A stretch of DNA of 59,687 bases, counting the filler, from Bonamia ostreae (lineage: Eukaryota), in assembly GCA_040357525.1 (NCBI GenBank). It is 5 parts of 5 records of this genome, joined end to end, with 100 filler letters (N's around TTAATTAATTAA, not from the genome) between each part and the next. Parts side by side here need not be neighbours in the genome. Positions count along the whole stretch, not along the records: positions 1 to 12,194 come from JBDODL010000018.1; 4 more parts are not named here. One strand, given 5' to 3'. The notes beneath the pieces were generated by a model, which ran no database searches, was not told the origin of the DNA, and was given only the letters and a program-made list of their open reading frames with translations. Below, piece after piece: positions 1,723 to 54,387 of this stretch. A program made the translations under genes and the position numbers. Position 1 is the first letter of the stretch. Every line of letters begins with the position of its first letter.

Positions 1723-3088
1723 TTATTGAATAGATATCACGACAAAAGCAAAGATCAGACAAAAAGCGGAGAAAACGAAAATTTTCAAACTTTTTGAAAA
1801 ATTTTTCACCGAAGAAAGTTTTTCATCGGCAAAAATTTTCGAAAGCTCCGACTTAAATCTTTCTTCCGAGAATTTTAGCTCTACGTGTTTTTGCCCTTCA
1901 ATGCCCATTTTCTCGCAAAGAGAATCAGATTTTACTATTTTCAGTACCGCTTGTGCAAAATCTTCCGCATTTTGATTGCAGAGAAACCCCGTTTTGCGGT
2001 CTACCACTGTTTCCAGTAATCCACCCGTGTTTGTTGCTATCACTGGTACTCTGTTTTGCATTGCTTTGGGTTAATAATGAAACCTTCGATCGGCGCTATT
2101 CCGAAATGTTCGTTTAATGGAGTGTAGATCAAACAACGCGCGATTTTGAACAAAAATTGCTTTTGTTTTTCTGAGAAATTTCGCAAGAAGACGACATCTC
2201 CTTCCAAATCGGGAAAGTGTGAGATTTTTAAGTCCATTTTGCTTTCAGTCAGCCGAACCAATTCTTCAAAATAAAGTTTGTTGTTTTCGCTGAACCCGCC
2301 GGCGAGAACGACTTTGACGTTTTTAGACTCTTCAAAATGGCGTTTCCGCAAAAGAAAAAGTGTTTCGATCGCCAGAAAAAGGTTTTTTGCTTTATCGAAG
2401 CGATTTATCGAAACCAAAAACGACCAGTTTTTACGCAAATCGATTTCCGAACTCTCGTTTTGCTTTTTGCTTTTAACGCTGACGGGGTACAATATTTGCG
2501 GGGTCGCTATTCCCGGGAAACAGTCTCTGAAGACATTTCTGGTAAATTCAGAGTTAACAACGACTTTGTCTGCGAATTCGATCGATCTGCTTTCGATCGG
2601 ATCGAGCAGTTTCCTGTACAGTCTGTGCAAAAAGCCCCTTTTTTTCGTCAACAATCTGTCTGGAAAGTGGCCATAGAAGAAAAATCTTTTTCTTGGTTTT
2701 TCATTTACGCTGAGACATCTCAAGCAGTTCTTAGCTTTGAGCACAGAAAGCGGAATTGGATGGATATCGACTAAAAAGACGTCGTGCGAATTAAGAGGGA
2801 CGAAGACAGAAACAATGATTAATTTGACGAGCGTAAGAAAGACGGTAAATTTTCCGTAAATGTTCAGCGGAATTTTTTCGGCGAGAGGAATTACTTTAAT
2901 GGCGAGTTTGGGATTTTTCGATTCTTCGAAACTCCTGTTCTTCTTGTAAAAAGTTGTGTAGATCGTCACTTGGTGCCCCATCTCGATTAATGAAATGGCG
3001 ACCAGCAAAATTAGTTTCTCTGCGCCCCCTTTTACAAATTGGAAAGCAAACCTATGCCTAGGTTGTAGTGTATTATTGCGATCCTCAT
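1723..3088 (-). CDS. ALG2: alpha-1,3/1,6-mannosyltransferase ALG2 (GT4), 3 exons
   Basis: Spliced MRIAIIHYNLGIGGAEKL, FYGHFPD, SINRFDKAKNL and YTPLNEHFGIAPIEAM..PVIATNTGG; introns 3029-3051 (23 nt) and 2064-2083 (20 nt). Confidence 0.95.
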
Positions 3089-4830: not shown

Positions 4831-7341
4831 TCATACGTCGGACGAGCCAACAACAAAACTGTCGATAACGCCGCTACCACTTGCCACGCCTCCTTCTACA
4901 GATTCCTTCGGCTTCGTGCGAAGAAGCCATCCGTCAAACTTGTTGTTGAGCACTCTGTCGCCTATCCTAAAAATAGATTTTGATTTTAGCCATTAAAACA
5001 CCTTTTTGAAATAAGTCAGCAGCGACGAGCCATTTTTGGCAGACTAAACACAAAAATATTAAAATGCCTTAAAAAGGTCCCGAAAACGCCAACTTCGCTA
5101 ACAGACCGCGCCCCGAAAATAACGCCATTTTTAGAAAAAACAGTGGAACTTTCGACCGGCCATATTTTCTTCATAGCTATGAGCCCTTTCAGCTCTTTAT
5201 CTTCTCTTAAAATCTTGCACATGTTTTCACCTTCTATAATGTTGCCCCCTCCCTCTCTTTGTGGCTTCAAAAGCCATTCCACCGGGTCGGCCAAAATCTT
5301 GTCTATAATTTGTGCTTTGTTTTCGCCTTCGAAGTTATGGCTTTCGTTAAAGTACTTCGCCAGAATATCGGCTTCGGCGGCATTCAAATATTTCGACAAG
5401 ACGCCCGGACGCGAAAACGCCTGTTGCAATCGCTTGCAACCAGCCAATTGGTACCCAACAGTCGGCGCCTTCAAACAATTGGAGGTCTCTATCATTTTTC
5501 TCGCTTTCCATTCCTTTTCGCTCGGATAGTCTTGCGGACTGTATCCCGCGCGGAAGTAAACGACGTCGATTTGAATGTCTCGCGCACTGTATTAAAATGA
5601 AAAGAACTTGTGTTTTAGGTTCAAAGTTGAATCTTTCAATGAGCACTCTTCAAAAACTTGTTTTAAGGTCATTTTGATAAATTTGACGTTTCTTTGCAAT
5701 TGTTATTTCAATTTAAACCTTTTTTTTAATTGATTTTCTATTATGTCGTGGTCGAGCATTCCGGTTTCTTCATTTTCTCTGACGATCATCAGAACGCTGT
5801 GGCCATTACAAATTTGTCTTTTGGAATATTTTTAAATTGGGAGAGCTAAATTAATATTCAGAAAAAACAATTTTCATTGTTTGAACTTTTTGTACAAAAG
5901 CGAAAATTAATCGTTTGGAAAGTATTAATATTTTTGCATTTTTGTAATCAAATTTTTCAACAATGCGAGAATATTTTTGCAGTCAAATTTTTAACAAAGC
6001 GACAATATTTTTGCAGTTTAACAAAGCGACAATATTTTTGCAGTCAAATTTTTAACAAAGCGACAATATTTTTGCAGTCAAATTTTTAACAAAGCGACAA
6101 TATTTNNNNNNNNNNNNNNNNNNNNNNNNNNNNNNNNNNNNNNNNNNNNNNNNNNNNNNNNNNNNNNNNNNNNNNNNNNNNNNNNNNNNNNNNNNNNNNN
6201 NNNNNTTGTGTTTTTGGTCAATTTGGAAAATTTTAATAAAGCAAAAATTTCAAAGAATATCAAAGTAATAAACGAATAAAAATCTTTCTTCTTTTTGTCC
6301 AAAAATCGCTCCAAAAAGCCATTTTTATTGTTTTCTCGTTTCCTTTTCTTTTTGCTTATTTCTTCGCATTCTTTATCGAACCAAACGTCTTTTGGCAATT
6401 CTCTTAATTGTAAATTTTAAAAACTTTGTTAATATTTCCCCCAAACCCAGAAGCAATAAATCTGACACCGCTTTAATACTGTGTTTGGGCATCGACTTAA
6501 ATTTGACCGTTTCCGAAAAATTCTCTCTCAGCAGATCTCTGTTTTGATTGAACATTTAAAATTAATACTTTTATAATTAATCGTTTCCGAACATTTATTC
6601 GCGTTACAAATTTTAATTTTGCAATCGGTTTTATTTAAACGCGTGGAAATCGACCATGTGCGCGGAAATGCCTGAATATCCGCATGAAATCGTGTTGATT
6701 TCGACGAGAAAATAACTTTGCGCTTTTTCGTCGAAGAAGAAATCAGCTCTGTTGATATTAATGGCGGGATGACCTCTCATTAAATCCATTTCGAAGGTAT
6801 CGCTGTAAATCCCAAAAAGTCGTTCTACAAAAGAATCCTCTTTGATGACTTCTCTGAGTTCATCCCTCAAAAACTCAAAATCTCTGCTGACAGAATCGAC
6901 GAGTTTGTTAATGATTGAGATGTCTTTTTCCAAATTTTCTATTTTTATTTTCTTCGGTAACAGCGAAAACGGGAAATTTGGGAGTTTTTTGTTGTTTTCT
7001 GGATTTGATGTGCTTGTTTCTAAAAGTTTTGATAATTTTTCATCCAAAATCTCTTTTTTAATGGTCGAATGCAAAGTTTTTATTGCTGTTTCCAAACATT
7101 CGTTTATTTTTTCATTTTCTTTATCGGGTTTTTCCGAATTTTGCTCGTTTTTGACTAAATTTTGATCATTTTTGTCGACATTTTCAAAATTTTGTTCGTT
7201 TTTGTCTAAATTTTGATCATTTTTGTCGACATTTTCAAAATTTTGTTCGTTTTTGTCTAAATTTTGATCATTTTTGTCGACATTTTCAAAATTTTGCTCG
7301 TTTTTTAAATTATTTTCGATTTTTGTATTTTGTGAAGACAT
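4831..7341 (-). CDS. GSS: glutathione synthetase (eukaryotic type), about 7 exons
   Basis: INRADF, VEINTIS, VVYFRAGYSP, QLAGCKRLQQ, LKPQREGGGN, SEVGVFG and GWLLRTK..EGGVASG motifs; one intron spans an assembly gap. Confidence 0.95.
5970..6105. repeat. intronic tandem repeat, about 34 bp unit, runs into N gap
   Basis: CAATATTTTTGCAGTCAAATTTTTAACAAAGCGA repeated. Confidence 0.85.
7137..7306 (-). repeat. coding 51-bp (17 aa) tandem repeat in the GSS N-terminus
   Basis: KNEQNFENVDKNDQNLD x3. Confidence 0.9.
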
Positions 7342-7374: not shown

Positions 7375-8363
7375 CTATGAAAATGGAGAACTGTGTAGTA
7401 ATTTAATTGTGTAAATCATCTTTTGCTCATTCCCCTTTTTCTTTCCGACATACGCGAGATTAGCCGGCACTACCAATTTTCTTTTACCTCCATAACGCAT
7501 CCCGCCCATTCCTAAATCCCAGCCTTTCGTAACTTCACCATTTCCTAAATAAATACATATATTAAAAAAACCGAATTTGAAACCGAAAGCTTTTTTCTCG
7601 TCAATGGCTGATTCAGTGATTTTGCCGTTTATATCTTTGGCGGCAAACAGGATTCTAACGAAATCGCCTTTGCTTATTTTCTAACAAAGTTTTTTGATTG
7701 ACAAAACCTTTCCTTCGCCTTTTTCTAAATCAAAAATTTTCACTCCGTTCTTTTCAACCCATTTTTTCTTCGACTTTTTGTTCTTCGATTTTTTTGATTT
7801 CTTGCTCGACTTCTTCGGCTTCTCAATCTTAACTTTGTCTATGTTCGAATTTTTAGAGATTTTTTCGGTTTTGGGATTTTTGTCAGATTCGCCATTATTT
7901 TTGGTTCTTGCCGAAATCGGTTTTTTATGGACTACTCCATTCAAAGACGAAATATTTGTTTTTGCCTCCTTCGGAAAATCGTCTTCAATGATGTTCAAAG
8001 ATTGAAAATAGCCAGAAATGTTAACACCCAAATTCCCTTTATTGAAGATCGTAACAGGAACTTGAGCTTAAAAATTAAATTTCAAGGATAACGAGGGAGG
8101 ACTAAATTCAAATTAAAATTTTCGCAATATTTTTCACGCAAATTGCAGACTATCACACTTTATCTTTTAGTTGAAAATAACGATTTCCCCGCGGTGAGAA
8201 TGGAGATTGAAGCGGACTCTGTCGATTTTTCTCCCGAAGTCGGATCTCCGTTCTCTGGAATAAGGGCGGCCGTACAAACATTCAAGACGTTATCTTCTGG
8301 GACAAAAACTTGAACTTTTGTTTTTGGGTTGATGTCTACTCCCCAAAAAGAAAAAGTGGCCAT
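7375..8363 (-). CDS. nucleoplasmin-like domain FKBP (FKBP39/Fpr3-Fpr4 type), 5 exons
   Basis: N-terminal [23 protein letters not shown] fold, Lys-rich linker, C-terminal FKBP ([45 protein letters not shown]). Confidence 0.85.
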
Positions 8364-12438: not shown

Positions 12439-12994
12439 ATGTTAAATCCTTCCGACTCAAATCCTAGCAACTTTATGACAGACGAATCTTTTCAAAGATA
12501 CAAAGAACGGTTGATAAAGAACGAAAACCTCATCATCGGTTAATAAACTAATTTCCATAGATGAGAAAAATCCGGACAGCTTTATTTTAAAGAAAATCAC
12601 AATAATAGTCGAAGACGAAGAAAAGTTCAATTTTGAACCGAGCCAAAAAATCCATTTCATTTTAAAAGAAAAATCGGTTTACAGAATTAAAATCCATTAT
12701 AACGTCCAACGCCAGATTATTGACGCTCTCTGTATGGAAACCAAAATCTACCGCAAGGGAATCAAAGTTTTGACCAATGAGGATATGATCGGAAGTTATG
12801 CTCCTTCCGAAAAAACTTATGTCGTTTTATCGTAAATCTTAGTGGGAATCGGAAAAAGAAGAAACGCCTTCTGGACTGATCAACAGAGGCAAATACAAAT
12901 GCAAAGCGCGATTTAAGGACGAAAAAAAGAAAGTTCATTTCAGAATCGACTACACATTTGGTAACTTTTTATATTTCCAGAAATCAAGAAATAA
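12439..12994 (+). CDS. ARHGDIA: Rho GDP-dissociation inhibitor, 4 exons (absent from the ORF track)
   Basis: Spliced DESFQRYKERL, FILKEKSVYRIKI, IYRKGIKV..MIGSYAP, EETPSGLINRGKY; introns 12539-12560, 12824-12842, 12961-12980. Confidence 0.92.
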
Positions 12995-25769: not shown

Positions 25770-27785
25770 ATGGTCGAAAAAATCAAATCGCTGATCGATT
25801 ACCAAAATTTAAATGACACCGAACGGAAAATGATAAAAGTGTTAGAAAAAAGCGCCCAAACCCACCTTTTCGAAGGCTGGAAAAACGGGGAAGACGAATT
25901 ATTAAAAAAGCAATTTTTAGAACAATGCGCTCATTTAAATAACGTACACGACGGAGGATTGGAAGTTAAGATTTGCTAAATGTCAAAGGGGTATTACAAT
26001 AAGTGCAGGGAATTGCTGTCAAAGTCTGCGAAAGGAGAAAATCTGCTCAGAGGATGGGTTCCTTCCGTCCCTAAAAGCCACATGGTTGAATTTGCATCGG
26101 AAAAGTTTTCCAGATTGGAGAAAATGGGCCTCGAGGTTCTTGGGAAAACGGCTTTTGTTTTAGTTGCAGGTGGACTTGGAGAAAGATTGGGCTATTCAGT
26201 TTAAACTTGACGTTTTAGGGGATAAAACTTAATTTGTGTTGCAACCTTTTAAACGAGGATTCTTTTTTCGCGATGTACGCGAAGTACATTCTTGCTTACC
26301 AAAAACACGCGCGGGAAAAAAACGACCCGTCTCTCACGCTTCCTCTCGCCATAATGACATCCGGTTTAGATAGCAAAAAATAGTTTACAATTTGTGCAAA
26401 AATATGTCTTAAAGCGATCACTTCGATTCGACAAAATGACAAAATTTTAAAGACGACACTCATTCAAAAACGATTGAAATGCTGAACAAAAACAACTACT
26501 TTGGACTGTCCAGAGACCAAGTGACTTTGCTCAAACAAGAAAAGGTCCCCGCCGTCACCGTTTCATCCAAAATTTCCGCAGAATTTAAAAGCTGAATTCA
26601 GCAGACGGTCCAAGTACAGAATCGAGACGAAGCCGCATGGCCACGGAGACGTGCACTCCCTCCTATACAAGTCGGTTCTGCGCAAATGGCAGCGTTCGGG
26701 AATAGAAAACGTCCTGTTCTTCCAAGACACGAACATTTTAGTGTTCAAAGCGCTGCCTTGTCTCGCCGGAAACTCGCTGGAGCAATCAATCGACGTCAAT
26801 TTTATGGTTCTGCCGAGAAAGCCGGGTGAAGCAGTGGGGTCGATTTGCCGCCTGAAAAAAGCGGATGGGAAAACAATGACCTGCAATGTCGAGTACAACG
26901 AGTTCGAGTCTCTTCTGCAGAAAACCGGAGTGAAAGACCACAAAAACAAAGTTGAACTTTTCAAAAACAAAGAACGGTTTCTCTTCTTTCCCGGGGAACG
27001 CCAATGTCTTTATTTTGAAAATGGACAAATACCTTGAAACTCTCGCGAAGACGGACGGAAAGATGCCAGAATATATAAATCCGAAGTACGCCAACAAAGA
27101 GAAATCGATCTTCAAAAGCGCGGCGAGGATCGAGTGCGCGATGAGCGATTATTCGATGTTGCTTGAATCCGACGATAATGTCGGGTGCACTCTTTTCGAG
27201 CGCTGGATGAGCTTTTCAGCGGCTAAGAACAATATGGCGGACGCCATCGCGAAGAAGAGACTGGTAAATTTCTCCGAGTCGGCCGCTTCCGCCGAAGCGG
27301 ATTTGTACTTGGCGAATCGCAGGTACCTTCGCCAATGCGGCTGCGACATCGAAGTAACAGCCGGAACAAAAATTTTCAACGGACTGGAGTCGTCAGACGG
27401 CGCGATGGTCTTGTTGGAGCCGTCTTTCGGCTGCATCTTCGAAGAAATAAAAAAGCGGTTCGAGTCGCCGCAAAAAGTCTCCGTCACTAAAAGGTCTTCT
27501 TTGTTGCTCTGTGGAAACGTCCAAATAAGAAAATTGGTTTTGGACGGCTCTTTGTCGATCGCAAGCAGAAAAACCGGGGACGGAATAGACAACGCGGTCA
27601 TTGAAGATTTGTCTGTGAGCAACGAGGGCTACGTCTTTGAAGAAGCGCGGGATTGCGATCCAGAGGAAATCATTCTGAGAGGCTACAAATTGTCGAAAAA
27701 AGCCAATTGTGACATGTTGGTCGACGAAGGAAGGACCTATAAAAACACTAACAAGTTGTTTGTTACAATAGACAATCGGTTTTAA
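25770..27785 (+). CDS. USP: UDP-sugar pyrophosphorylase (USP), 6 exons
   Basis: [63 protein letters not shown] and EYINPKY. Confidence 0.95.
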
Positions 27786-27961: not shown

Positions 27962-30900
27962 TCAAATCATTTTAATCACTTCACTGTAAGTGTATTTTGA
28001 CCGATAAAGAATGTGATAAGTGGCGAAGATATATATGAACAAGTTACTGTAAATCTGTGAATGATTAAAATCATTAAAAATGATTAAAATTTGAAAAAAA
28101 TTCAAATAAAAATAATTTTTAAAATGATATAAAATCAACCAAAGAACGCACCAAAACAATCCACAGTTTAGATTTTTGTTTTTTCTAAAATGAAAAATAA
28201 AACAATCCCCTCTTTGTTTAAATAAAATTCCCCGTTTCGCTCAAAAATGTACTTTGAAGGATGATCAAATTTTGCTTTAAAACATATCAGTCCTAAAATT
28301 CCAGTAAATACAGGTACCAGATAAAATAACACCATCCAAAAAACAACAAAGTCTTTATTCAAGGGCTTCATAATAAAATGTATTATTGTTACGATTGGAA
28401 GCAAATATATCAAATTCATTAAAAATACTTTAGATTGTGTAACAAAACTCTTTAATTTTCCGGGTGCAAATTTTTTCTCGTAAACTTTATCTAAAGCAGG
28501 ATTAAATTCAGTCTCAATATCTTCTTCGGTTTCATTCGCATGTTTCGTTGCGATTCGTTTCAAATTAGATAAAACATTAATTGATTTTTCTTCTAATTTT
28601 GCGTTTGCTTCAAATCCTTTTGCGCCAAAAATCTCAAAATGGTATAACAATAGATTGATAAAAGGCAGATTGAAGCTTTCTAAACCTAATCGAACATTTC
28701 TTCGCATTATCAACAATATTTGAAATCTAATCGGTTTATTTTTAAAAGTAATTTGAGAATTTTCTGTATCGTATTCTTTATCGATTAACGTCATTATTTT
28801 TGCTTTTTTTTAATTATTGTTACCAGAAATTTCCAAAATGCTCGTTTTGTCTATTTTTGAATAAAAATTTTTCCCCTTATTTCCAACCTTCTCATTTCTC
28901 GACTTAAAATGTACAGATAACCATTTCTTTAACAAGCCATTAACACTCAAAACAATTTTTTCTCTGCTTAAAAATTTGTCTGCTTCAATTTTAAATCCCC
29001 ATTTGAAAATCTGTTTGAAAGAAGCAAAATTGCTTAATGGTCGTTTATATTCTAAAAATATTCAATAAACCTCTTAACGTCGATTGCAAATAATCTGTTC
29101 TCTTATTCATTTTTTTAACAAAATCGACTTCAATTGACTCAATTTTTTCCAATATCATTTTTTCCTGACTCAAAAACACTTTTTCGATGTTCTTGTAACG
29201 CGAAGGCACAGATATTTGAACCAAAACGTTTATTTTTGCGTTTCTGAGCATTTTATAGCATTTCTCAACTTTCAATTCGTCGCATTCTAAATCGATTTGT
29301 AATCTTTTCGCTATGTCATCTCTCATATCTTCCATTGTAACTGAATCGTAATCATCAAGCAAGTCTCCAAATGATATCGAATCTTAATTCTTAATAAAAA
29401 CAATAATCGACGTTAGATTTTGCTTTCCGTACGTAAAGAATATCATTTGAATTAATATCAAATTTTTGCAGTGCGCACGAAAGCTGTTTTCTATAAACTT
29501 CTAAAATTTTGTAGTTTTGATTAAAATTTGTCAAAATTCGCACCAAGTTCTCGATCAAAAGAATAATCGTTGTCAGATCATTTTCATTTGTTTTTACAGT
29601 TAAAGAATGAGTATTTTCTTATTTTTTAATGTAATAAACTGGGAGAAAAGAGCATCGAATTGTTGTAGTTTTCAGATAATTTTTGTAGAAAAGTTTTAAA
29701 ATGACTGACCCAATTAAGAAAAAGTGGATATTTTAAAACTTTCTTTTCTAAAACAAGTTTGTTTAATGTTTCGTCTTTTAATTTAAATAAATTTAAGAAA
29801 TAATTTTTTAGTAAAAATTTGGCTAAAGAAATTTTGATAATTGTTTTAAATTTTAGCAGAGCTAAATAAATTTATGAAACAAATTTGTTCAATATCGCTT
29901 TCTTCAGTGCAACCAGTAAAAATGAACGGTTTTTTATTAAAATCGTTTTTGAGATTCACAAAAGTATAAATTTTGTGCAAAATCGAGATTTTCTTTTTTA
30001 ATGATTTGATTATCAAATCTTCGCCATTTCTAATGTACAGTTTTGTCATCGTTACATTATTAAGCCCCAATTCAGTTTCGATGTTCTCCACGCTTTTACC
30101 GCCATTCAAGTTCTTTATTTTCTTCTCAATTTTCATTTTCAAATATGCCATTTTTGAACGAAATTTCTCGGGAAAAACAAATTTTATCAAAATTTCGCCA
30201 TTATTTCTTTGCTCAAAATCAATTAATCTAATTTTTTTAGCGCTCGAATACAAATTCGCCCTTAAAAAATCTGTGTTTCCATTGTTGACATAATTAATTT
30301 CGGTGCACATCTTTCTTACGAGATTTAAAGAAGACCTGTTGATTTGGATGTTAATAGTTAAATCGTTTTCCATTCTTTCGATATCTAAAATTTCGATAAT
30401 CGCTTCCTTTTGTAAAAAGTACTCTAATCTTTTTTTTAGTTTTGTTTCAAATAAAAAGGGGTTTTGCAGCCAAATTTTGTAGCATTCGTTCATGTATAAG
30501 TTTATAAAAACTATTATAATTGAAAAATGTAAACTGGGAGGTTCTTTTTATTTAAAAATTATAACCTGATAATTGATGATCTATAAAAGTGCACAACAAA
30601 TGGGAGATTAAAAAAGAAATTTCTGGGAAATTTTTCCATTTTTTTAATGTTTTTGTCAATTTGTTTAAAAATAGATTGTGTTTGTCTTTATAAGAAGCTT
30701 TTCCCCATTTCAAATAGATTCCAACTAGTTTATAATTCAAAAGTTTTTCGTTCATTTAAATTGTTAAAAACGAAATTTTATAATTGCTATTGTTCAAATT
30801 TGAATGTTATAATTGTTTGAAGCAATAAATGATTAACAGAAATTAATTAAAACGGCTGAATTTTTTCATCAATTCCCTAATTTTTATTTCTTTTTCAACA

Positions 30901-34920: not shown

Positions 34921-35898
34921 TTAAAGGCACTTTTGTTTATATATTGCACAGGGGAAAATTAATAAAAAGATCAATTTACAAGAATATCTTTCCAGAAAGC
35001 CAACAAAACACAAAAACTGTGAAGAGAAAATGAAACTTGTTGTCTCGAATAAAAGTACGGTGTATTTAACGCCAACATTGAAACTCGAAAACGGAATTGA
35101 AGCGATGTACAAAAAATGAAAAAATTGACAAATTTATTTGTTCTTTTTGCCAAAATCGATTCGACTGAACAGATCATTCAGAATATCTTCAAATAAAGGC
35201 TCGACGAGACATCCCTTCGCAGTGTAGATTTCAGTAGCTCTGATTGTTTTCAGCCATTTTTTTCGTTCGTTCCGAGAAAAGGCTCTTATACAAATTTGGT
35301 AAAATATCGAAAATTCTTCAATTTTTGTGTCGATTTTGATTTTTATGCCTTCGCTTACATTTCCCGTTGCTTTTGTCGTCCGCGCACTAACTATGTTGTC
35401 TTTGCCGTAATAATATTCGCATAAGTTGATCAACAGGTTGATGGCCCAATATCTTGGAAATCAGGATAAAAACGTGACGAACGCAGAGACGAGAATATAG
35501 GAATTTTTCGGGAAGGGGGTTTTGTTGTAATGGGCGTACAGCGTCATCGCAACGCAACAGGATAGCATAAAAATCTTGAAGTTTTCCATTTTTCGACTGA
35601 TTTTTACGTTTTTGGTTTTTATCCACTTTCATTTTGTAAAAATTACTTTTAGGACGTAATCGTCGCATGTCGATTTTATTGAAGCGGACGATGTGAGATT
35701 TGCTTTGAATCCTATAGATTCACATAATTAGTCAAAAAACCTTCAGAGGACATTCTGGGAATTTTAATGTTTATGGTATAAATTTTTTTTAATAAAAAAT
35801 GGATTTAAAAAAATAACATTTTCCGATAAATCTTATCGGCAAACGTGGATAATAGCCCCAATCGGCCCTTCCGGGCACAAATAAATGGCCATTTTTCA
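34921..35898 (-). CDS. hypothetical multi-exon protein, possible PH domain (ends approximate)
   Basis: YQICIRAFSRNERKKWLKTI resembles the PH C-terminal strand and helix. Confidence 0.4.
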
Positions 35899-36989: not shown

Positions 36990-37873
36990 TTATTCCTCCT
37001 CAATTCCATTGCTTTTACTTTTCAACCTTTCACACAGTTCTTCTGCCATCGTTATCTCTAGTGAGCGGATGTCTTCCATTGACATTCCAAACCACTCATC
37101 TATCAAAAGATAGGCTTCACACTGAGCTATGGTTAAAAATTCTCTAAAATAATCCTGAAAATGAAAATAAAACCCCCATAAACTTTTCTACGATGGTCTG
37201 CAGCCCCCACCACTTAAATTCAAACCGCATTAATTTGTAGCAGCACATTATCGGTCCTTCATAATTGCTCTATAGATTATTTTTTGAACCATCCAATTTT
37301 TCCCGATATTTCTTCCTGTTTTCTTAGATTCAAAATCAGTAGGATGAACATCAACCTTGCCCTTATCCAATTCAGTTATGTCGCAGAGAATAATTTCGAG
37401 ATTCTTTTTATCCTCTTTGTTTAAGTTGAATAGTTTTTCTGGATCGGCATCAATGTGGTCGAGATGCCAAGAAGATAGATTCACATTGAGTTTTTCGTGA
37501 AATGGTTTGGTCTCAAGTTTAAAATAAAACTGTCTTGTACTCCGTGAAACAGTAGGGGTAACAGTTGTATGAGCTCTCAAGAGTGCGTGTAGAATTGAGG
37601 GAAGGAAAAAGTTTTTTTGCGAAACTCGGTATTTTTCTGAGAATTAAAAGAGGAACTTTGAGATGTAGATGCATTTTTCGGTAAATTGGCCTTTTCCATG
37701 TTCCTCGTTTTCGAAAGGTTCGTTTTTAAGAACCTTGACGCCCTCGCCGTCTATTGTGTCTCGTTCGCTTCGCTTTAAAACCATGTAGAGTTGGGCAATG
37801 TTGTATTCGTCGACCGTCATCGGTAACGGAATTTTACTTTAATTGAATTCAAAAACAATAATACTGTCCTCAT
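36990..37873 (-). CDS. phosphatidylinositol transfer protein (class I PITP-like), multi-exon
   Basis: KIPLPMTVDEYNIAQLYM, GEGVKVLKNEPF, F.SKKTGR, MCCYKL..EFKWWGLQTIVE and DEWFGMSMEDIR. Confidence 0.93.
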
Positions 37874-38149: not shown

Positions 38150-41100
38150 TCATATCAAATTTCTATCTTCTAGCATTTTTATTTCTTCAACTTCGTCCTT
38201 GCTCGGGTTGACAGCAAAATAAAATCGCAAAAAGCGTTCCAAGACAAAAACGCCAATAAAATCCAGAAAGAGTAGTCCTAGAATCAAAGGAAATTCTTCA
38301 CTATCGGTAAGAGGAACCAACTGCAAATAACCATTCAAAAATGGTAGCACTCCGAGTAACGATGAAAACAGAAAAAAAGCAGCCATAACTAAAACTTTGA
38401 AATAAGGTATGTTTTCTCGCACGCTTTCCATAAAAGGTTGTCCAATGTAATTAGAGTAGAAGGTGCCTAGATTCATGAATCCCGATAAATAGAAAGACAT
38501 TGTGTTCGCTGGACTCATTTCAAAGTTATCTTCCGCGTCATTGGCATCAGGAAGAATCTGTTCGAACGCAATATTTTCTGAAATATTCATCGCAACTCTT
38601 AAAATGGTTAAATGGATCGCCAACTGCCCCGCAATGTTGAAAAAAGAGTACAAAGAGAGAGACGTCTTCTTTGGCTTCTGAGCGCTGATTTTTTCAGAGC
38701 ATTTTGCTGAAGAAACGAAAAGGAACAAAAAAGTTACGACCAATTCTTCCGCGGTGGCTTGTCTGTCGCTCATTTTGATTCCGTGAAGATATTGGTAACT
38801 TTTGATGAAAACAAAACCTGAAGAGAGCAGTGTAAACGAGACAATTGAGCGCTAAGATCTGGTACATCTGGGTGTTCACGGCTAACGTTCTGCGCCCTTC
38901 TTTTATAATGTCCAAAACTCCCTCGAGTTTGCCGAATCGAATTGTGAACGGAGAGGCTACCGACGCCACGTTCATATCGACCAAGTAGTCGTCAGAGTCA
39001 TCAAACAGAGCACTCTGCTTTGCGGGAGAAGGTTTCGCTACTTCGGAGTTCAATCTGTTGCTGCCACTTTCACACAGAGCGACTCCGATGTGAGCCTGTT
39101 TTAGCGCAGAAGCGTCGTTCGTGCCGTCTCCGCACATCAGCACAAATTCGTCCGACCTTTTTAGACTTTTGAGAACGCCCTCTTTTTGCGACGGCGACAT
39201 TCTTGCGAAAACAGAAAAGTGTTTTACGAGCGCGTCGAGTTCTGTTTTTTCCAACTCGCTTTGGAGCAACGCGAACGCCTCCCCGGTGATGCTCAAGTCA
39301 TATTCCAAGTCTTTCCTCTTGATCGCAGACAAGTTCAAATCTGCGATTTGGCTGTCGTCGTTTAAATAAGTCCAGTTCAGAGAACCCGCGTTTTTTGTCA
39401 GAGTCGCGATTCCCTTGTCGCAAATTCCGCATCGCCTCGCCACGTGGTTTGCAGTAAACGCGCTATCGCCCGTTATCATAACAGTTTTGTGCGCAGATCG
39501 GCGCAAAGACTCGAAATTAGAAAAATTACGAAAATGGTGTCGAAAGTTTGGTCTCTCATCTGCGAACTGAAGGCCAGAAAGCCGGAGAACTCGCAGTCGG
39601 AATCCAAGTTTCTAGACGAGAGTCGAAGATTCTTTGACGGCTTCATCCTTTTCAGAGCCGTCGCGATTACGCGGTATCCCTGTTTTGCATCGGAATAAAA
39701 CAAGTTTGGACAAATTGGCGCAAGTGCTGTCGTAGTCGCGGGGCACTGTCTCGAGGAGTTCCTTGACGCGTTCGCTTGCGCCTTTCACGACATAAAAGGT
39801 TTCCGAGGACCTTCGCGTCTTCAGTTCTACTACGCAAGACATCTTCTTCTCCTCGGAAGTGAAGGGAAAGCGTCTGACGATTCTTAGCGTCGCTTCGCAG
39901 TTGAAGACGTTCTTCAGGTGGATTAGGCCGGAGCGGGACATCTGCGCGTCGAGGGATTCGAACGCGGCTATTTCGAGGGAATCGCCGCTTAGGCGATCGT
40001 CTTCGAGGACGGAGAGCGAGTGGCAGCCGGCCACCACCAGCTGTGTTTTCCGAGAGGAGAGCGCCAGCTGCTTTAGAGTCTCTTCCTCCTTCTTGTGTGG
40101 GAGAGACGCCACGCCCGCCAACTCGTATTGGTCGTTTGTGAGTGTGCCCGTTTTGTCGAAGCAGCAGTATCGCAAAGAGCCGGCGGCCGGGAGACGGTGG
40201 CCCTCCGAGCAAAACACCTTTTTCTTGGAGAGCGATAGCAGCGCGTTGTTGACCGAGAGGGACAAGACCATCGGCAACTCCGTGGGGACGACCATTGTGA
40301 TTATCATGATGCAGTTAAGTAAGAGGTCGCCCGCGTCTGTGCCCGGCCGCTCTATGCTCTTCTTGAAAACGTACGCTGCGCAGCACACAGAAACACTCAA
40401 AAGAACCGCTAGAAACTTCAGCGCGTCTTTGTCGTAACCGAGAGAAGCGCTTTCGGTCGAATGGAGAATGGTGCGAAGCAACTGTCCTTGGCTGGTTGCG
40501 AAAGCTTTGGTTAGAGGGTAAACAAGTTCTCAAAGTGTACACCAACGCCCCGCCGTCAGGAGGGTCCGGAACGAGGGGCGGCACAGCTTCGCTGGGCGAA
40601 CCGATCGACGCGGAAAGAACGAAAGTTCCGCCGTTGACAGCGGAGCTTTTGTGTTTTGCGGATAGATCGAGGACCTGGTCGACTTCGTCGAAGGAGTTGA
40701 TGGCCGTTTTTGTCTGTGGTGTTGACTCGCCTGTCAATAAGGCCTCGTTGACGACGGCGGAGCCTCTTAGCAACACAACGTCGCAAGGGGCCCCGACTGA
40801 CCTTGCTGCGCGGAAAGAAAGAATATCGCCGGGGAAGATTCGGGAGGAATCGATCAGAGTCCATTTGCCGTTTCTAAAGGCGTAAATCGGGAAAGAGGGA
40901 AAGCGCATCCCACGGACATCGGACAAGTTCTTCAAACGACGATAAGCCATCGAAGCTTCGAAGAGCAATAGCATTGCGACTATGAGCAAACTGTATCCGA
41001 TGTACCCGTCCAAGGACCACAAAACGACGACTACCAACTGGAAAACGAAAAAGGGGGCCGAAATGTGCTCGATGAACAACTTTGAAAACGATATGTCGGG

Positions 41101-41684
41101 GATTTCGAACTCGTTTGGACCGTACAAGTTTTCGATCTTAACGTTGCACGAAAAACTTTTGGAATATCTTGGTCTTCGAGGCCTTTGCTTTCTAGATAAC
41201 GCTTAATGGGCATCGAAATCGGAAAAGCAACGGGCTCAAACTTTCCTGAAGACGAATCGAAAAAGTGTTTTGTCTTTTGAAACACAAAAAAAGTTTTCTG
41301 GCCTAAATCTGACAACGGGCAGATTTCTGACGAACCGCAATGAGGCAATGCCTCTACAAACGCGTGAGAAGCGTTCGAAACCGACTTTGTCTCTTGATAC
41401 ATCACAAAGCTCTTAAATTCCAAGCTCCATAAACTGCAAAGCAATGCGAACAGAAAAAGAGCCGAAATGAGTGCGAAGCAGCCCGCGAAAGCGCGAAATG
41501 GTGTGATCTCAAAACTTAAAGAGATTTCTCTCATTTTGAGGGAGAATTTTTGACCCGGAAAAGCGAACAGAAGAACAGTCGACAACAAGGAGCTAACGAT
41601 AAACGGATAGACGTTGTGGTAAAAAAGAACGTTGTTTCGTTTCCTTAACAGTCTGAAAGATTTGAACAGTTGTGTTTGCGTCAT
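38150..41684 (-). CDS. ATP13A1: P5A-type ATPase (ATP13A1/Spf1), 6 exons
   Basis: APFFVFQ, LTGESTPQ, CFDKTGTLT, KGASE, MITGD, MCGDGTND, ALNCL; five 19-22 nt introns restore the frame. Confidence 0.96.
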
Positions 41685-43676: not shown

Positions 43677-46425
43677 ATGTCTAAAGGAGAAAGAAACAAA
43701 AAGGAACAAATTGGCAAAATTAAAAGCTCTTCCGGAGAATCCTACTATCCGCTCCTTCTTAGATCGAATGCGAAGACAAACGAAAGCAAAAATTTAGACT
43801 TTCCAGCTGCGCAGACTTTTTCTTCCTTCTCAAACGAGCTCTTTCTCACGTCCGGATCTTTCGCCGCCGCATCTCCCCGATTAGCGAGCCCTGCTCAAGA
43901 TCGCGGGGCCAGGGAGAAAGCGAAGCGCCTTTCAGAACGAGCGAACGAGAGTCGCAACCAACTCGACTTTTTGGAAGTTGGAGGTCAAGACGAGAAATAT
44001 GAGGCGGAAGATTGCTTCTCGAAAATACCAAAAGCCTTCTTCGAAAAGGACTTTGACATTTCCAAAAATGAGACGGCTCTGGGTCTCCTCGAGAAAAAAG
44101 GTTTCGATGGCCGTTTTGAAGATTTTGTTGGATTTTTGGGAAAAGTAGACGTTTTTTACTTTTATTTCAGATTTGTCTGTTTGACCAGATTTCGTTAAAG
44201 TCCGAAGAGCTTTTTGATACATTGAATATCATTGAAGTTTTTAATATAAAATTGAAGCATAAATTTGTAAAAAAATTAATAAAAAATCTGTAAAAAACAA
44301 ATAATAAAACGAATCCATTAAAAAGGAGCTGAGCTGCCAAATAGAAAATGTAATCGAAAATTCTTTCGAAGCGAAAAAACGAATCGAAACGTTTTCAAAA
44401 AACTTTGTCCATTTGGTTAAATTTGCCTAATTTTAGAACGAAGAAATAGAAGACGCCGTAAAAAATTTGCTTTTTGCGGAAAAAACTTGCTCAGTTCTGA
44501 AAAGACTAATCGACTTAAAAACGTTTAATTAAATCGAAAAAAGCGATTTGGAAACGGCAGAAAACTTTCTGAACAAAAACAAAACGATCGACGCTTTCGT
44601 CGTTTTGCGGAAAACAATCAACGACAACGTGCTCAATTTCGAAAAAGTCACCATTTTAATAGAAATCGAGAAAAAGGCGCATCTTCTGCTGAAAAGTTCG
44701 CGAGCCAAAGTCGTTGCGAATTTTGAGGACTTTGTCAAAAATGCCAAAATAGGCAAAAATTCGAACGAAAATGAAGACTTCGAATTCATAAAAAGAGCCA
44801 TTTTGTTGTTTACGAAACATTGCGCGCTTGGGCACATAACCGCGGCGATCCAGACGACAGCAACTAAAACTGCAAAATCGTTCGTCAAAAAGGCGATCTC
44901 CACTTTGTCAAAAAAACCGAAAAACAAAAAAAGCTCTAAACTCGGAAAAACGCAAAATCCGTTAAAATCCGAAAACGAATTTGTGTTCGTTTTCGAAAAG
45001 TTTTGCGATTCCTCGCTTTCTCTGTTAAACCGATTGTCCGATTTGCTAAATCTTCTCAAAAACATATACAAAAGCTTTACGGAACAAAAGGAAAAAGAGT
45101 ACTTTGACCATTTTTTCGCTGAAACGAAAACGATTTTGGATGAAATGGCTGAATATGTTCACGGAAAATGTGATAAGCTTCTAAATTTGCATCGACAAAG
45201 CTTATTAGTTTTAAATCCGATAAATATTGGCTATTTTATGGAGAAATCAATCCGTTTTGTTGAATCTTGTGGTTTTTAAATTCGGACTTTTGATTTTTAT
45301 TGGTTTTATTGGATTTTCTGTTAGAAGAAAAACAAAATTTTTGTAAATCGTAAAATTTCAGAATCGCTGACAAATGAACCGCTTTTGAAATTAAGGGAGT
45401 CGCTTCTTTTTGTTGGCCAAGAATTTTTGTCGATTTTATCGAAAAAGCATAAAGAACAAATAGAAAAAGCCATTTTCGAAGAAAATTGGAAACCAGTTTA
45501 AAAAAAAACGTTTTAAAGATGCCATTTCCGTGGCAATATCAAGAATTGGTTGACGGAAAGTACTCGTTGAATAAAAAGACGGCGGAGACCACTTTGAATT
45601 TTGAAAAAGAAGTGCAGAAATTCTCAGTCCGATTAAACAAACAAAACGGAGAACAAAAAAATTTTGCAAAAAGTGTTCATTTTTCGGCTTTTAGGATTGT
45701 CATAATATTGTTCTTCCATTTCACGGAAGAACTGAATTTTGTTAGTTTAAATCCGCTTCTGGCGGTGAATGTTTTGGGCAGTGCGACGGAGTTGTTTTTG
45801 TTCTTCAACAGCGAACTGGTTTAAAAATTTTTCCTGAAACTGATCGCCTTTTTTATTAAATTTTATAAATCCGAAAAAGAAAAAAGCGATATTTTTGGGA
45901 AAACTTTCGTCCGGAACAAGTCAGAAAAATTTGACCGTGCGACATTTGGCCGTCGAACTTCACATTGTTTCCTTTTTGGCCGCAACAATAGACAAAATCT
46001 ATTCGCCATTCAAAGAAACGCTAAAAGGAAACAAGGTCGAAAAATGTTCGAAAATGATTAAAGCGCATTTCGACGAACACAAAAAAGCAGTTTTCGCCAA
46101 AATTGCTTCTGTCGCTGAAGAGACTATCGAATCTGAGGAGAAACAAACTTTTCAAAGTGGACTTGACGGCGATCTCAGTCAGAACATGAAATCGTTTGTA
46201 CGAAAACTGAGATATTTGAAAAAGAACACTTTCGATTATTTAGGCGATTTGGAGCAAAATAATTTACAAGAAGTCGTTCATGGCGCGTTTGAACGCAAAA
46301 TTCAAACTTTAATTCGAAAACACAAAATTGAATGGGGAAGTGCCGACTTAAATTATTTGAAAGAGCACTTTAAAATGATTTGGGGCAGCAACGATGCTTT
46401 AGAAGAAATGTTCGCGGAATTTTAA
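43677..46425 (+). CDS. VPS54: GARP complex subunit Vps54-like, multi-exon
   Basis: IPKAFFEKDFDI, LFDQISLKSEELFDTL and C-terminal KNLTVRHLA...F.EH...FAKI match the Vps54 pattern. Confidence 0.65.
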
Positions 46426-46866: not shown

Positions 46867-47382
46867 TAATTACGATGAAAAATTAAAGTATAAATATGTT
46901 TATAATTAAGAATTGGTTAGAAAAATCTTGCGATATTCAAATTTCTATTCAGTACTTTTTTATTAATTGTAAATCATTCTCTTTTTATCTCTCTTTTCTA
47001 ATTAATTGTAATTTCCTTTTTTCTGGCGGAGGTCGATTCTCAATCAGAAGTTTAATTTTTCGTTTCTAAATATATTCTTTACATTCTATATTTTTATTAT
47101 CGCAGAGACGTTTTTATCGTCCACACAAGAGATCCTGTATAAGAAACTTTTTTTGCTTGACCAACTAATATTTTTCAGACATGTGCATCTTTGTTTTTGA
47201 TGGCAGTGTGTTTAATTTGTTAATTTTTTCTATTGTTGATAAAAGATAAATAAATCTGAATTCTTTTTATAATTAGATTTCTGCAATATTCAGATTATTT
47301 TATGGAATAGCGACGAAAAATTAAGCAATTTAGAAGATAAACTTCTACTATGAAAAATAAATTTCTACAATCTATTTACATT

Positions 47383-48227: not shown

Positions 48228-48562
48228 ATGGTTTATACTAATTTTATTAATTTGTAGAAGCTGACGAAAATTACTCCGATGCTCAATCGCGTCCTCGTGA
48301 AAAAATTGAAGCCGCCTACGAAATCAGCGGGCGGAACAATCATCCCACAAATGGAGCACGCTGAATCTCGAGAAGTTTCATTTCCAAACAAAAGGGTGTT
48401 GTCGTAGCGATGGGGAAATTATCAAAGAAGGAATATGATATCGTAAAAGTCGGCGATATGGTCTTGCTCCCCGAATTTGGAGGCGTTCAGCTAAACATGG
48501 GAGAGCCCAATAGCCATATCTTAGTGCAAATCGAAGATATTCAAGCCAGAATCGATAAATAA
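48228..48562 (+). CDS. HSPE1: chaperonin 10 (Hsp10/Cpn10), 3 exons (absent from the ORF track)
   Basis: M|KLTKITPMLNRVLVK..KSAGGTIIP..|GVVVAMG..VKVGDMVLLPEFGG; introns 48231-48257 and 48375-48394. Confidence 0.92.
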
Positions 48563-53900: not shown

Positions 53901-54387
53901 CTTTTTAGTTCAAACTTTATAATTAGACTTTTAAATTATTTGAAAAATTTCAAAAAAAACTGCGAAAATTCAATTAAAAAATTGATAAAAAAAATTCAAA
54001 AAATACCAAAAATTTAATAAAAAAATTCAAAAAATACCGAAAATTTAATAAAAATTGCAAAAAATCGAAAATTTAAAAACTTAAAAATTAGAAATAATCA
54101 TTTTTCAATTTTATAATTTCGTTTATTTGAACTAATCGTTATAAAAGGACTACAATTGGTGGTGGAATGCATTTTTAAGCTCGGGATCGAGTGGAATTTG
54201 TTTATTTTTTTACGGGATTTATTATGGCATTTTCAATTTGCATATAAGCCATTTTGCACCTTTTGTTTTGTATATTGGCTACATGAGCTTGATTTCATTT
54301 ACTCTTTTTCTTTTGACGGGTACTATTGGAGTCGTGGCTGCATTTTTGTTCATCAGCAAGATATATTCGTCGATTAAAATTGATTGA
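50992..54387 (+). CDS. transmembrane 9 superfamily protein (EMP70/TM9SF2-4 type), multi-exon
   Basis: YFLPGVAP, KLTSHHTQMPYDFY, GWKLVHGDVFRPP, GILPF, DYNWWW, C-terminal IYSSIKID. Confidence 0.95.
52446..53060. repeat. intronic satellite, about 26-27 bp unit, spans N gap
   Basis: TTTTTGCGATTTTTTTGTTGTAAT repeated more than 15 times. Confidence 0.95.

Follow-up and report, generated by a model that had tools for sequence, protein, structure and literature searches.

Results

Genes and introns of the analyzed region

The window, i.e. the whole stretch of 59,687 nt of Bonamia ostreae DNA that was analyzed (filler between its joined parts included), harbors genes for ALG2, a P5A-ATPase (ATP13A1), EMP70/TM9SF, glutathione synthase, a Vps54-like protein, RhoGDI, Hsp10/Cpn10, PITP, SPC25 and FKBP, besides some unnamed ones. 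Its multi-intron genes contain two to seven introns each. Altogether, 43 introns were catalogued without use of donor position +3. Simply listing the GT..AG segments that separate open frames gave 1372 candidates and was too noisy, worst in GC-rich genes; a spliced aligner was employed instead, which demands GT..AG only and has no preference at +3. For ALG2, 15 homologs drawn from the 120 matches listed were tried. Contigs of run X3, presumed to be RNA (the label is a guess), were compared with those of the DNA runs X1 and X2. The strict set comprises 21 introns supported by RNA-like contigs or homolog alignment and found without length limit:

3029..3051, minus strand: ALG2 intron 1, 23 nt, GTTTGC...AAAAG, phase 1; 14/15 homologs; removal yields P0121
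2064..2083, minus strand: ALG2 intron 2, 20 nt, GTTTCA...CAAAG, phase 1; 14/15 homologs; Pfam Glycos_transf_1 positions 111 and 112 at the junction
41137..41156, minus strand: P5A-ATPase intron, 20 nt, GTTTTT; skipped in X3, kept in X1/X2; 14/14 homologs
40505..40523, minus strand: P5A-ATPase intron, 19 nt, GTTTAC; skipped in X3; 14/14 homologs
39680..39701, minus strand: P5A-ATPase intron, 22 nt, GTTTTA; 14/14 homologs
39510..39529, minus strand: P5A-ATPase intron, 20 nt, GTAATT (GTA donor); skipped in X3; 14/14 homologs
38799..38817, minus strand: P5A-ATPase intron, 19 nt, GTTTTG; 14/14 homologs
45272..45361, plus strand: Vps54-like intron, 90 nt, GTTTTT; X3 joint
45496..45518, plus strand: Vps54-like intron, 23 nt, GTTTAA; skipped in X3, kept in X1/X2
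45819..45879, plus strand: Vps54-like intron, 61 nt, GTTTAA; X3 joint
44210..44298, minus strand: intron of an unnamed gene, 89 nt, GTTTTT; X3 joint from 44209 to 44299, CT..AC on the plus strand
47050..47105, plus strand: intron of an unnamed transcript, 56 nt, GTTTAA; X3 joint
51076..51098, plus strand: EMP70/TM9SF intron, 23 nt, GTTTTC, phase 0; 10/13 homologs, the other 3 alignments beginning downstream
51288..51356, plus strand: EMP70 intron, 69 nt, GTATCT, phase 0; 12/13 homologs
51552..51646, plus strand: EMP70 intron, 95 nt, GTACAT, phase 0; 12/13 homologs
51863..51947, plus strand: EMP70 intron, 85 nt, GTTCTT, phase 0; 12/13 homologs
52425..53338, plus strand: EMP70 intron, 914 nt, GTTTTT, containing tandem repeats and an N run; 13/13 homologs
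53561..53666, plus strand: EMP70 intron, 106 nt, GTTTTC; 13/13 homologs
53889..54147, plus strand: EMP70 intron, 259 nt, GTTCTA; 13/13 homologs
5587..5607, minus strand: glutathione synthase intron, 21 nt, GTTCTT; 12/12 homologs
5692..5718, minus strand: glutathione synthase intron, 27 nt, GTTTAA; 11/12 homologs

Some candidates were dropped as ambiguous, namely 41508-41576 in the P5A-ATPase gene (1/14 homologs) and, in the glutathione synthase gene, 4967-5049 (7/12 homologs), a donor at 6640 whose acceptor was unsettled (10/12 homologs) and a long intron ending at 5818.

The other 22 introns are supported by Pfam coordinates, ORF joining or anchors picked by eye, four of them with low confidence:

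12539..12560, plus strand: RhoGDI intron, 22 nt, GTTAAT; sole GT..AG candidate between anchors
12824..12842, plus strand: RhoGDI intron, 19 nt, GTTTTA; one of two candidates, favored by Pfam Rho_GDI over a 22-nt GTCGTT rival
12961..12980, plus strand: RhoGDI last intron (low confidence), 20 nt, GTAACT; sole candidate to a 3-residue anchor, in what we take to be the C-terminus
48231..48257, plus strand: Hsp10 intron directly behind the ATG (low confidence), 27 nt, GTTTAT; by eye
48375..48394, plus strand: Hsp10/Cpn10 intron, 20 nt, GTTTCA; sole candidate; Pfam Cpn10 positions 36 and 37
37837..37856, minus strand: PITP intron, 20 nt, GTTTTT; sole candidate
37637..37656, minus strand: PITP intron, 20 nt, GTTCCT; sole candidate; Pfam IP_trans positions 66 and 67
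37512..37530, minus strand: PITP intron, 19 nt, GTTTTA; sole candidate; frame restored
37270..37289, minus strand: PITP intron, 20 nt, GTTCAA; sole candidate
37155..37173, minus strand: PITP intron, 19 nt, GTTTTA; sole candidate; Pfam position 208 on both sides
35453..35473, minus strand: SPC25 intron, 21 nt, GTTTTT, containing an in-frame TGA; sole candidate
25965..25988, plus strand: "USP" gene intron, 24 nt, GTTAAG; sole candidate
26199..26218, plus strand: "USP" gene intron, 20 nt, GTTTAA; sole candidate
26364..26452, plus strand: "USP" gene intron, 89 nt, GTTTAG; sole candidate
30544..30565, minus strand: intron of the ORF-chain gene 28171-30755, 22 nt, GTTATA, phase 1; sole candidate joining ORFs of 67 and 233 aa
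29862..29880, minus strand: same gene, 19 nt, GTTTCA, phase 1; sole candidate
29618..29639, minus strand: same gene, 22 nt, GTTTAT, phase 1; sole candidate
29383..29401, minus strand: same gene, 19 nt, GTTTTT, phase 1; shorter of two candidates with a common donor
29052..29070, minus strand: same gene, 19 nt, GTTTAT, phase 1; one of two candidates, both GTT
28803..28823, minus strand: same gene, 21 nt, GTAACA, phase 1; shorter of two candidates with a common donor
7545..7571, minus strand: FKBP intron (low confidence), 27 nt, GTTTTT; multiple of three, stop-free, PDB alignment indecisive
7681..7707, minus strand: FKBP intron (low confidence), 27 nt, GTTTTG; removes an in-frame TAG, 30-nt GTCAAT rival present

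Two 1-nt frameshifts in the PITP gene were rejected in favor of two ordinary tiny introns, given the Pfam junction at positions 66 and 67 and the unique GT..AG candidates. In the "USP" gene, the junctions 26554/26560 (two GTC and two GTT candidates) and 26930/26951 (two GTG and one GTT candidate) were dropped as ambiguous, as was 26675-26692, a chance GT..AG within a conserved motif. No ubiquitin-protease motif that would support the identity "USP" was detected by regular expression, and Pfam gave no match at this gene; judged by eye and by its motifs, it resembles a UDP-sugar pyrophosphorylase. A search of the metagenome contigs with P0242 as query disclosed no related loci. X3 lacks cover at 37008-37398, 41700-42481 and 43264-43654, and 42112-42131, 42282-42304 and 42454-42473, located upstream of a K-channel exon within the second of these gaps in cover, were left out of the catalogue.

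Most donors named in the original prediction reappeared in this catalogue. Both ALG2 donors (GTTTGC and GTTTCA, each with 14/15 homologs) and all four of ATP13A1 (GTTTTT, GTTTAC, GTTTTA and GTTTTG, with 14/14) were recovered, as were GTTAAT and GTTTTA of RhoGDI as candidates between anchors. A fifth P5A-ATPase intron, GTAATT, had been absent from that list. For Hsp10, GTTTCA is backed by the Cpn10 profile, and GTTTAT right behind the ATG is merely plausible. Two of the four donors proposed for "USP" (GTTAAG, GTTTAA) are the sole candidates at their junctions; the other two, GTTTCA and GTTGAA, are present, each with GTC or GTG rivals.

Evidence for splicing

Among the gaps listed, eight GT..AG segments are missing from the X3 contigs and retained in X1 and X2, and seven of them start with GTTT. 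Their GT/AG ends are exact in all eight cases, the remaining 35 introns having been searched with GT..AG as a condition. Over the genes with these segments, the X1 and X2 contigs match the window. The three P5A-ATPase introns skipped in X3 were recovered along with two further ones by the spliced aligner, with 14/14 homologs. Intron removal restored reading frame and homology in the spliced alignments of P5A-ATPase, ALG2, EMP70 and glutathione synthase, and Pfam profile positions are continuous over the junctions. The ALG2 gene (minus strand, 2064-3051) without both introns corresponds letter for letter to the 440-aa GenBank protein P0121; P0121 and P0241, both GenBank models of B. ostreae, align over their full length after intron removal. 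GenBank proteins assigned to Bonamia ostreae are identical to ones encoded in the window. We regard it as nearly certain that these are genuine spliceosomal GT..AG introns with a real GUUU bias. U12-type donors have the consensus RTATCCTT, and none of the 43 introns starts with GTATCC or ATATCC.

It is hardly credible that the gaps reflect misplaced boundaries, assembly errors or deletions in the DNA of the X3 strain. The guessed RNA label of X3 leaves some room for this explanation, and a 30-nt gap at 36305, common to X3 and DNA run X2, is a DNA polymorphism. However, neither DNA run shows the eight other gaps, which have exact GT..AG bounds and restore frames and homology.

Donor, acceptor and branch-point sequences

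At position +3 the 43 introns exhibited T in 38 cases, A in five, and neither C nor G. The resulting 88% T exceeds all backgrounds of 43-49% (binomial p about 1e-7 to 7e-10), which were 42.9% for the total of 2504 GT..AG segments with 17-27 nt, 46.1% for every GTN of the window and 44-49% for T within introns. The last of these comparisons had been named beforehand as one on which the predicted predominance of GTT could fail. The strict set gave 18/21 (p 7e-5 to 7e-4). Position +4 is T in 31/43 introns (72%) and, given GTT, in 30/38 (background 46.6%, p 5e-5), while G at +5 occurs once; the consensus GTRAGT is thus not that of these donors. T was found at +6 in 19/43 introns, this position being A or T, and at +7 in 21/43. 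The last exon nucleotide (-1) is G in 20/43.

If only GT, AG and length mattered, T at +3 and +4 would simply follow from T-rich introns or a mutation bias. T indeed makes up 44-49% of intron interiors, and no GTN is more frequent in the window than GTT (46%). Against this stand the observed 88%, the complete lack of C and G at +3 (0/43 against approximately 37% expected) and GTA donors, which are not enriched (5/43 against 17-18% background). Furthermore, introns of 56-914 nt carry the same donor, and 20 exonic GTTT..AG decoys of the right length are not spliced. We therefore consider composition alone a very unlikely explanation. The donor signal is GUUU-like and selected, not GURAGU.

On the acceptor side, A is present at -3 in 21/43 introns and at -4 in 23/43, and AAG ends are frequent. 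A pyrimidine tract is absent from the 43 introns, just as the original prediction had stated along with its remarks on the lack of +5 G and the minority of GTA donors, which the counts above bear out. The branch motifs YTRAY, TRAY, CTAAY and TTAAY showed little or no excess in the catalogued introns. Of the 32 tiny introns, 20 contain TNA with its A at -8 to -10 (13.5 +/- 2.7 after shuffling; 32 of 2000 shuffles reach 20), as do 10/21 introns of the strict set, for which 8.6 are expected. Pairing of the U-rich 5' end with an A-rich 3' end within tiny introns was rejected, as the mean stem was 1.875 compared to 1.93 in permuted sequences. Intron interiors are variable, and only GTTT and AG stand out.

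Length classes and decoys

By length, 32 introns form a class of 19-27 nt and the other 11 a class of 56-914 nt. They had been predicted to be mostly 19-27 nt long, which holds for only 11/21 introns found without length limit, the other ten measuring 56-914 nt. GTT heads nine of the 11 long introns. The donor consensus, G-U-U-U followed by A/U-rich unconserved positions, is common to both classes, and length alone therefore does not determine which site is used. Confirmed exons totaling 6261 nt contain 20 unspliced GTTT..AG segments of 19-27 nt, compared to eight real tiny introns, so that the donor motif accounts for site choice only in part. The suggestion that sites are set mainly by length is disfavored by both findings. 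Since GTTT, AG and length are insufficient, a further feature must mark the real introns.

Discussion

How the donor may be read

The 5' end of canonical U1 is ACUUACCU; its two pseudouridines cannot pair with U at +3 and +4, and with the donors described here about two intron base pairs are left. As U at these positions is unpairable with canonical U1 and +5 and +6 provide no compensation, we infer that an altered RNA pairing may read the 5' splice site. Its most likely form would be a U1 snRNA whose 5' end has A's opposite +3 and +4 (...AAAC..., as in Entamoeba), probably assisted by the ACAGA box of U6, whose A-G-A could pair with +2 to +4 (UUU). We give such a compensated U1 in this organism a chance slightly short of even. 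In the window, Rfam searches at gathering or E<=1 thresholds disclosed two tRNAs and no snRNA, and Pfam found no gene for a U1 snRNP or U2AF protein.

Alternatively, U1 may have been lost or sidelined, site choice then falling directly to U6, whose ACAGA would pair with the UUU of +2 to +4, together with Prp8 and the loop of U5, while +3 to +6, once freed, drifted to GUUU. The lack of constraint at +5 and +6 in the catalogued introns agrees with this. According to sections of Zarsky 2023 (PMC10245619), mikrocytids yielded only U2, U4 and U6 snRNAs together with 17-19 spliceosomal proteins, which favors loss of U1 over a change of it, and passages of Hiltunen Thoren 2024 (PMC11069148) describe splicing-gene losses along ascetosporean branches. 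The latter passages assign gene loss to the ancestor of paramyxids and mikrocytids, however, not to Haplosporida. Moreover, G at exon position -1 in 20/43 introns is a weak trace of U1- or U5-type pairing with the exon end, and the introns are numerous and varied in length, in contrast to the uniform 16-17 nt set described for mikrocytids. On balance, loss of U1 appears rather unlikely to us.

It is also conceivable that canonical U1 was retained and that proteins such as U1C and Luc7 or the exon/intron context offset its weak pairing, GUUU then being a protein preference. The decoys show that information beyond the donor is needed, and standard U1 alongside atypical donors is reported in parts of a preprint for Thecamonas, Mamiellales and 69 Saccharomycotina species (10.1101/2022.06.08.495308); since their atypical +4 donors go along with an unaltered U1, compensation is not the rule. 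Yet those lineages alter a single position (+4), whereas Bonamia has U at +3 as well as +4 and lacks the +5 G. An unchanged U1 seems improbable.

Taken more broadly, haplosporidians such as Bonamia may have changed the 5' end of U1 to one reading GUUU or dispensed with U1, with a further code telling real introns from decoys. We put this forward tentatively and with somewhat more doubt than confidence. If it is true, splice signal and snRNA would have coevolved independently in a rhizarian whose genome is rich in introns, and a further code would separate real introns of 19-27 nt from the more numerous exonic GTTT..AG look-alikes.

Significance

Natural test cases for a joint change of spliceosome and splice signals are few, Entamoeba being the clearest. 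There, massive intron loss accompanied the transformed donor and the matching U1. The Bonamia lineage, unrelated to Entamoeba, kept many introns, yet moved +3 and +4 to U and dropped the +5 G. Near-minimal and ordinary-sized introns sharing one donor separate two questions that are usually confounded, the minimum length and the reading of the 5' end. In practice, gene-finding and read-mapping programs set for GTRAGT and a minimum intron length of 30 nt will overlook these introns or put them in the wrong place in B. ostreae, a notifiable oyster pathogen, and its relatives.

Comparison with known systems

The genome paper of B. ostreae terms the introns "canonical", with a mean of two per mRNA, at an assembly N50 of 1417 bp (Hiltunen Thoren et al. 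2024, PMC11069148); this number, derived from a highly fragmented assembly, may be too low. Its passages on introns, splicing or the species do not mention lengths of 19-27 nt or GTT donors, and its supplements consist of GO tables without a per-species U1 inventory. Among the papers searched, which do not extend to subscription journals, e.g. older work on haplosporidian actin genes, none was found to describe donors with GTT or introns of 19-27 nt for Bonamia or any other haplosporidian. In the GenBank models of B. ostreae, the introns described above for ALG2 and EMP70 are already spliced out.

Heterotrich ciliates and the chlorarachniophyte nucleomorph resemble Bonamia in a narrow length class near the physical minimum; their introns use GTA-type donors, which account for only 5/43 here. 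The lengths cited in parts of Zarsky 2023 (PMC10245619) are 15-16 nt and 18-21 nt, respectively. More closely related are the mikrocytids Mikrocytos mackini and Paramikrocytos canceri, likewise Ascetosporea, parasites of marine invertebrates and equipped with ultra-short spliceosomal introns, all of which, by the same sections, are 16 or 17 nt long and highly conserved in sequence (PMC10245619). The tiny introns of Bonamia differ in measuring 19-27 nt, in being variable behind GTTT and in occurring alongside introns of 56-914 nt.

A further close precedent is Entamoeba, where, as described in parts of the preprint by Roy and Bowser (bioRxiv 10.1101/2022.06.08.495308), GUUUGU donors are read by a U1 with ACAAAC, and positions +2 to +6 of these donors can also pair with U6 ACAGA. 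Both are AT-rich parasite genomes without GURAGU and with U at +3 and +4 (here 88% and 72%), and Entamoeba demonstrates that a U1 (ACAAAC) can match such a donor. In Entamoeba, however, +5 G and +6 U are fixed (88-90% GUUUGU according to the same parts), while in Bonamia +5 is G in 1/43 introns and +6 is A or T; positions +5 to +7 of GUUUGUU thus have counterparts in 1, 19 and 21 of 43 introns only. Entamoeba is also described there as intron-poor, whereas the Bonamia genes studied here have two to seven introns each, many of them 19-27 nt long. As Entamoeba belongs to Amoebozoa and Bonamia to Rhizaria, i.e. to different supergroups, the changed donor is of independent origin.

Identity and gene content of the window

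The window is AT-rich eukaryotic nuclear DNA (G+C 25-47% in 2-kb windows; 852 masked bases) with standard stop codons. Pfam matches in its open frames comprise uL5, ALG2, ALG14, glutathione synthase, FKBP, RhoGDI, SPC25, PITP, a P5A-type ATPase, a K channel, Vps54, an MFS transporter, Cpn10, MutL_C, EMP70 and KH domains. Since the open frame of ALG2 shows 100% identity to the GenBank Bonamia ostreae protein P0121 and 'MHBO_000173 [Bonamia ostreae]' (P0241) is matched from end to end by the EMP70 gene, the DNA is taken, on sequence grounds, to be that of B. ostreae (Haplosporida, Ascetosporea, Rhizaria) or of a strain almost identical to it. For the P5A-ATPase, no relative of >42% identity was found among 120 longer proteins listed. 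The G+C content is 43-47% at 10001-12000, 26001-28000 and 38001-42000 (e.g., the P5A-ATPase and 'USP' genes) versus 25-33% elsewhere; tiny introns (19-27 nt) inside these G+C-richer genes are still AT-rich. The gene at 25725-27782 (+), named 'USP' in the original prediction, looks by eye like a UDP-sugar pyrophosphorylase, which it presumably resembles in motifs such as AGGLGERLG and KPHGHGDVH, and unlike a ubiquitin protease. Pfam searches of the 'USP' frames gave no match at E<=0.001 or 0.01. Short tandem arrays with a period of ~21-52 nt occupy intergenic DNA and also the long introns in the EMP70 and glutathione synthase genes:

52446-53162, tandem array
5938-6105, tandem array
1424-1618, tandem array
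16307-16476, tandem array
20103-20253, tandem array
58377-58619, tandem array

Intron boundaries

Proteins were aligned to the DNA by a spliced aligner written for this analysis, whose sole boundary demand was GT..AG, position +3 being unweighted. For ALG2 the first 15 of 120 listed homologs were used and for the P5A-ATPase 14 of 120. After removal of both ALG2 introns, P0121 aligns along all 440 residues. Each of the five P5A-ATPase introns was recovered with 14/14 homologs, three of them being also skipped by X3 contigs (see below), while EMP70 contains seven introns of 23, 69, 95, 85, 914, 106 and 259 nt (10-13/13 homologs). The remaining glutathione synthase junctions are unsettled and were left out of the catalogue.

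3029-3051, minus strand, ALG2 intron, 23 nt, GTTTGC..AAG, 14/15 homologs
2064-2083, minus strand, ALG2 intron, 20 nt, GTTTCA..AAG, 14/15 homologs, Pfam positions 111|112 across the junction
39680-39701, P5A-ATPase intron beyond the X3 set, 14/14 homologs
38799-38817, P5A-ATPase intron beyond the X3 set, 14/14 homologs
5587-5607, glutathione synthase intron, 12/12 homologs
5692-5718, glutathione synthase intron, 11/12 homologs

Over 36226-47951, contigs of X3, a run whose RNA nature is a guess, were compared with the DNA runs X1 and X2. X3 contigs lack 39510-39529, 40505-40523, 41137-41156 and 45496-45518 and jump 44210-44298, 45272-45361, 45819-45879 and 47050-47105, all of which are retained by both DNA runs. 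The eight segments have exact GT..AG ends on the strand of the gene, with seven GTTT donors and one GTAA. They were found among the indels and contig pieces listed, 6 indels and 140 pieces lying outside this list. X3 being presumed RNA, the boundaries of eight introns are shown at the RNA level. A 30-nt gap of X3 (36305-36334) was rejected as an intron, because it is also absent from X2 and thus a DNA length polymorphism.

Some contigs revealed other features. Neighbouring opposite-strand transcripts at 43660-46241 overlap or were merged in assembly, since one X3 contig crosses the minus-strand intron 44210-44298 and three plus-strand Vps54-like introns. One X3 contig has a T inserted after 37611, where the minus strand of a PITP exon has seven consecutive A (37611-37618); the insertion makes up 618.6 of 5467.5 depth in X3, is absent from X1 and X2, and could be explained as slippage, as an error or as a variant. 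X1 and X2 contigs connect 46382 to 47005 via 31 different letters, displacing a stretch with tRNA-Ala (46793-46866), and a separate X1 contig covers 46528-46872. Either structural variation or a contig originating elsewhere could account for this joint.

The strict set (homologs and X3), selected without length limit or +3 criterion, contains 21 introns (18 GTT, 3 GTA; 11 tiny, 10 long). Twelve further introns, in RhoGDI, Cpn10, PITP (5), SPC25 and 'USP' (3), are all GTT; each either was the sole GT..AG candidate flanked by conserved anchors or gave continuous Pfam positions, the anchors being chosen by eye, partly from known homologs, a possible bias. Six introns (5 GTT, 1 GTA) connect seven open frames of the ORF-chain gene at 28171-30755 (-). 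The catalogue of 43 includes four of low confidence. Its intron phases number 22, 14 and 7; uniformity within a gene, as in EMP70 (51076-54147, +; 7/7 phase 0) and the ORF-chain gene (28803-30565, -; 6/6 phase 1), was unexpected. At 48228-48257 (+) the Hsp10 ATG apparently abuts a 27-nt intron (ATG|GTTTAT..TAG).

Donor composition

Nucleotide counts at intron positions (n=43)
+3: T 38, A 5, C 0, G 0
+4: T 31, A 6, C 6, G 0
+5: T 21, A 14, C 7, G 1
-3: A 21, T 13, C 7, G 2
Exon -1: G 20

The base after GT is T in 42.9% of the 17-27 nt GT..AG segments (n=2504) and in 46.1% of GTN triplets throughout the window; intron interiors contain 44-49% T. With 38/43 introns (strict set 18/21), the predicted GTT donors in place of GTRAGT stand, because T at +3 exceeds intron composition. 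Binomial p values were 7e-10 (against 42.9%), 8e-9 (46.1%) and 1e-7 (50%) for all 43 introns, 7e-5 to 7e-4 for the strict 21 and 0.013-0.035 for the eight X3 introns alone. As also predicted, GTA donors are a minority (5/43), unenriched at 12% versus 17-18% of the background, and +5 G is nearly absent (1/43). GTC and GTG donors account for 0/43 versus ~37% of the background. In a noisy scan of 17-27 nt GT..AG segments bridging two open frames of >=50 codons, GTT (49/1073) surpassed other donors (37/1431; odds ratio 1.8, p 0.008). The introns are real, their GTT bias is more than chance, and the GUUU donor is shown to be under selection.

Length and additional signals

Intron lengths fall into 19-27 nt (n=32) and 56-914 nt (n=11), with none in between. 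The proposal that sites are chosen mainly by length is disfavoured: 9/11 long introns also have GTT donors, and 6261 nt of confirmed exons (three genes) harbor 20 GTTT..AG decoys of 19-27 nt versus eight real tiny introns. The AT content of decoys and real tiny introns overlaps. Since long introns share the donor and decoys outnumber real tiny introns, length is not enough to define an intron, nor is GTTT together with AG, and another feature must mark real introns. The expected lack of a polypyrimidine tract was borne out, positions just before AG being A-rich, and classical branch motifs showed little excess in the catalogued introns. In 20/32 tiny introns there is a TNA whose A lies at -8 to -10, versus 13.5 +/- 2.7 in shuffles (32/2000 reach it); this weak, position-bound signal falls short of significance in the strict set (10/21 versus 8.6 expected). 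Pairing between the two intron ends was not above permutations. Among the 32 tiny introns, eight are a multiple of three in length, of which only 7545-7571 (low confidence) is stop-free if retained.

Reading of the donor and comparison with known systems

The U1 5' end pairs with GURAGU, two U1 pseudouridines lying opposite +3 and +4. We infer that a donor having U at both +3 and +4 and lacking +5 G would leave canonical U1 with about two base pairs inside the intron, so that, judged from the donors, 5' splice site recognition must be altered. The altered or reduced spliceosome originally proposed would be a reasonable explanation. Within the window, Rfam detected tRNA-Ala and tRNA-Tyr only, with no snRNA, and no U1 snRNP genes were found. 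A putative U1 with a compensating change, which would read the GUUU donor, is the leading candidate, though held at somewhat below even chances. In Entamoeba, 88-90% of donors are GUUUGU and U1 reads ACAAAC, and Mastigamoeba has its own, separate compensation (10.1101/2022.06.08.495308). Ranked second, and rather unlikely, is a loss of U1 with recognition centred on U6. Mikrocytids, of the same class as Bonamia, are reported to have 224 introns, 16-17 nt long and conserved in sequence, and U2, U4 and U6 are the only snRNAs found in them (PMC10245619). A canonical U1 that was kept and is aided by proteins, despite its two or so intron pairs, ranks third and would be slightly less probable still; Thecamonas, Mamiellales and 69 yeasts are reported to show no compensation (10.1101/2022.06.08.495308).

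The B. ostreae genome has been described as having 'canonical introns' (mean 2 per mRNA), G+C 33.3% and an N50 of 1417 bp (PMC11069148), and Ascetosporea, in a 2026 paper, as drastically reduced in intron number and size (PMC13746701). The raw fact is already public, because GenBank gene models for ALG2 and EMP70 remove the introns located here; these GTT and tiny introns are apparently undescribed. In the literature covered, to which subscription journals did not belong, we found neither GTT donors nor 19-27 nt introns described for haplosporidians. Transformed U-rich donors and near-minimal introns are known kinds, encountered here in a lineage for which no earlier description was found.
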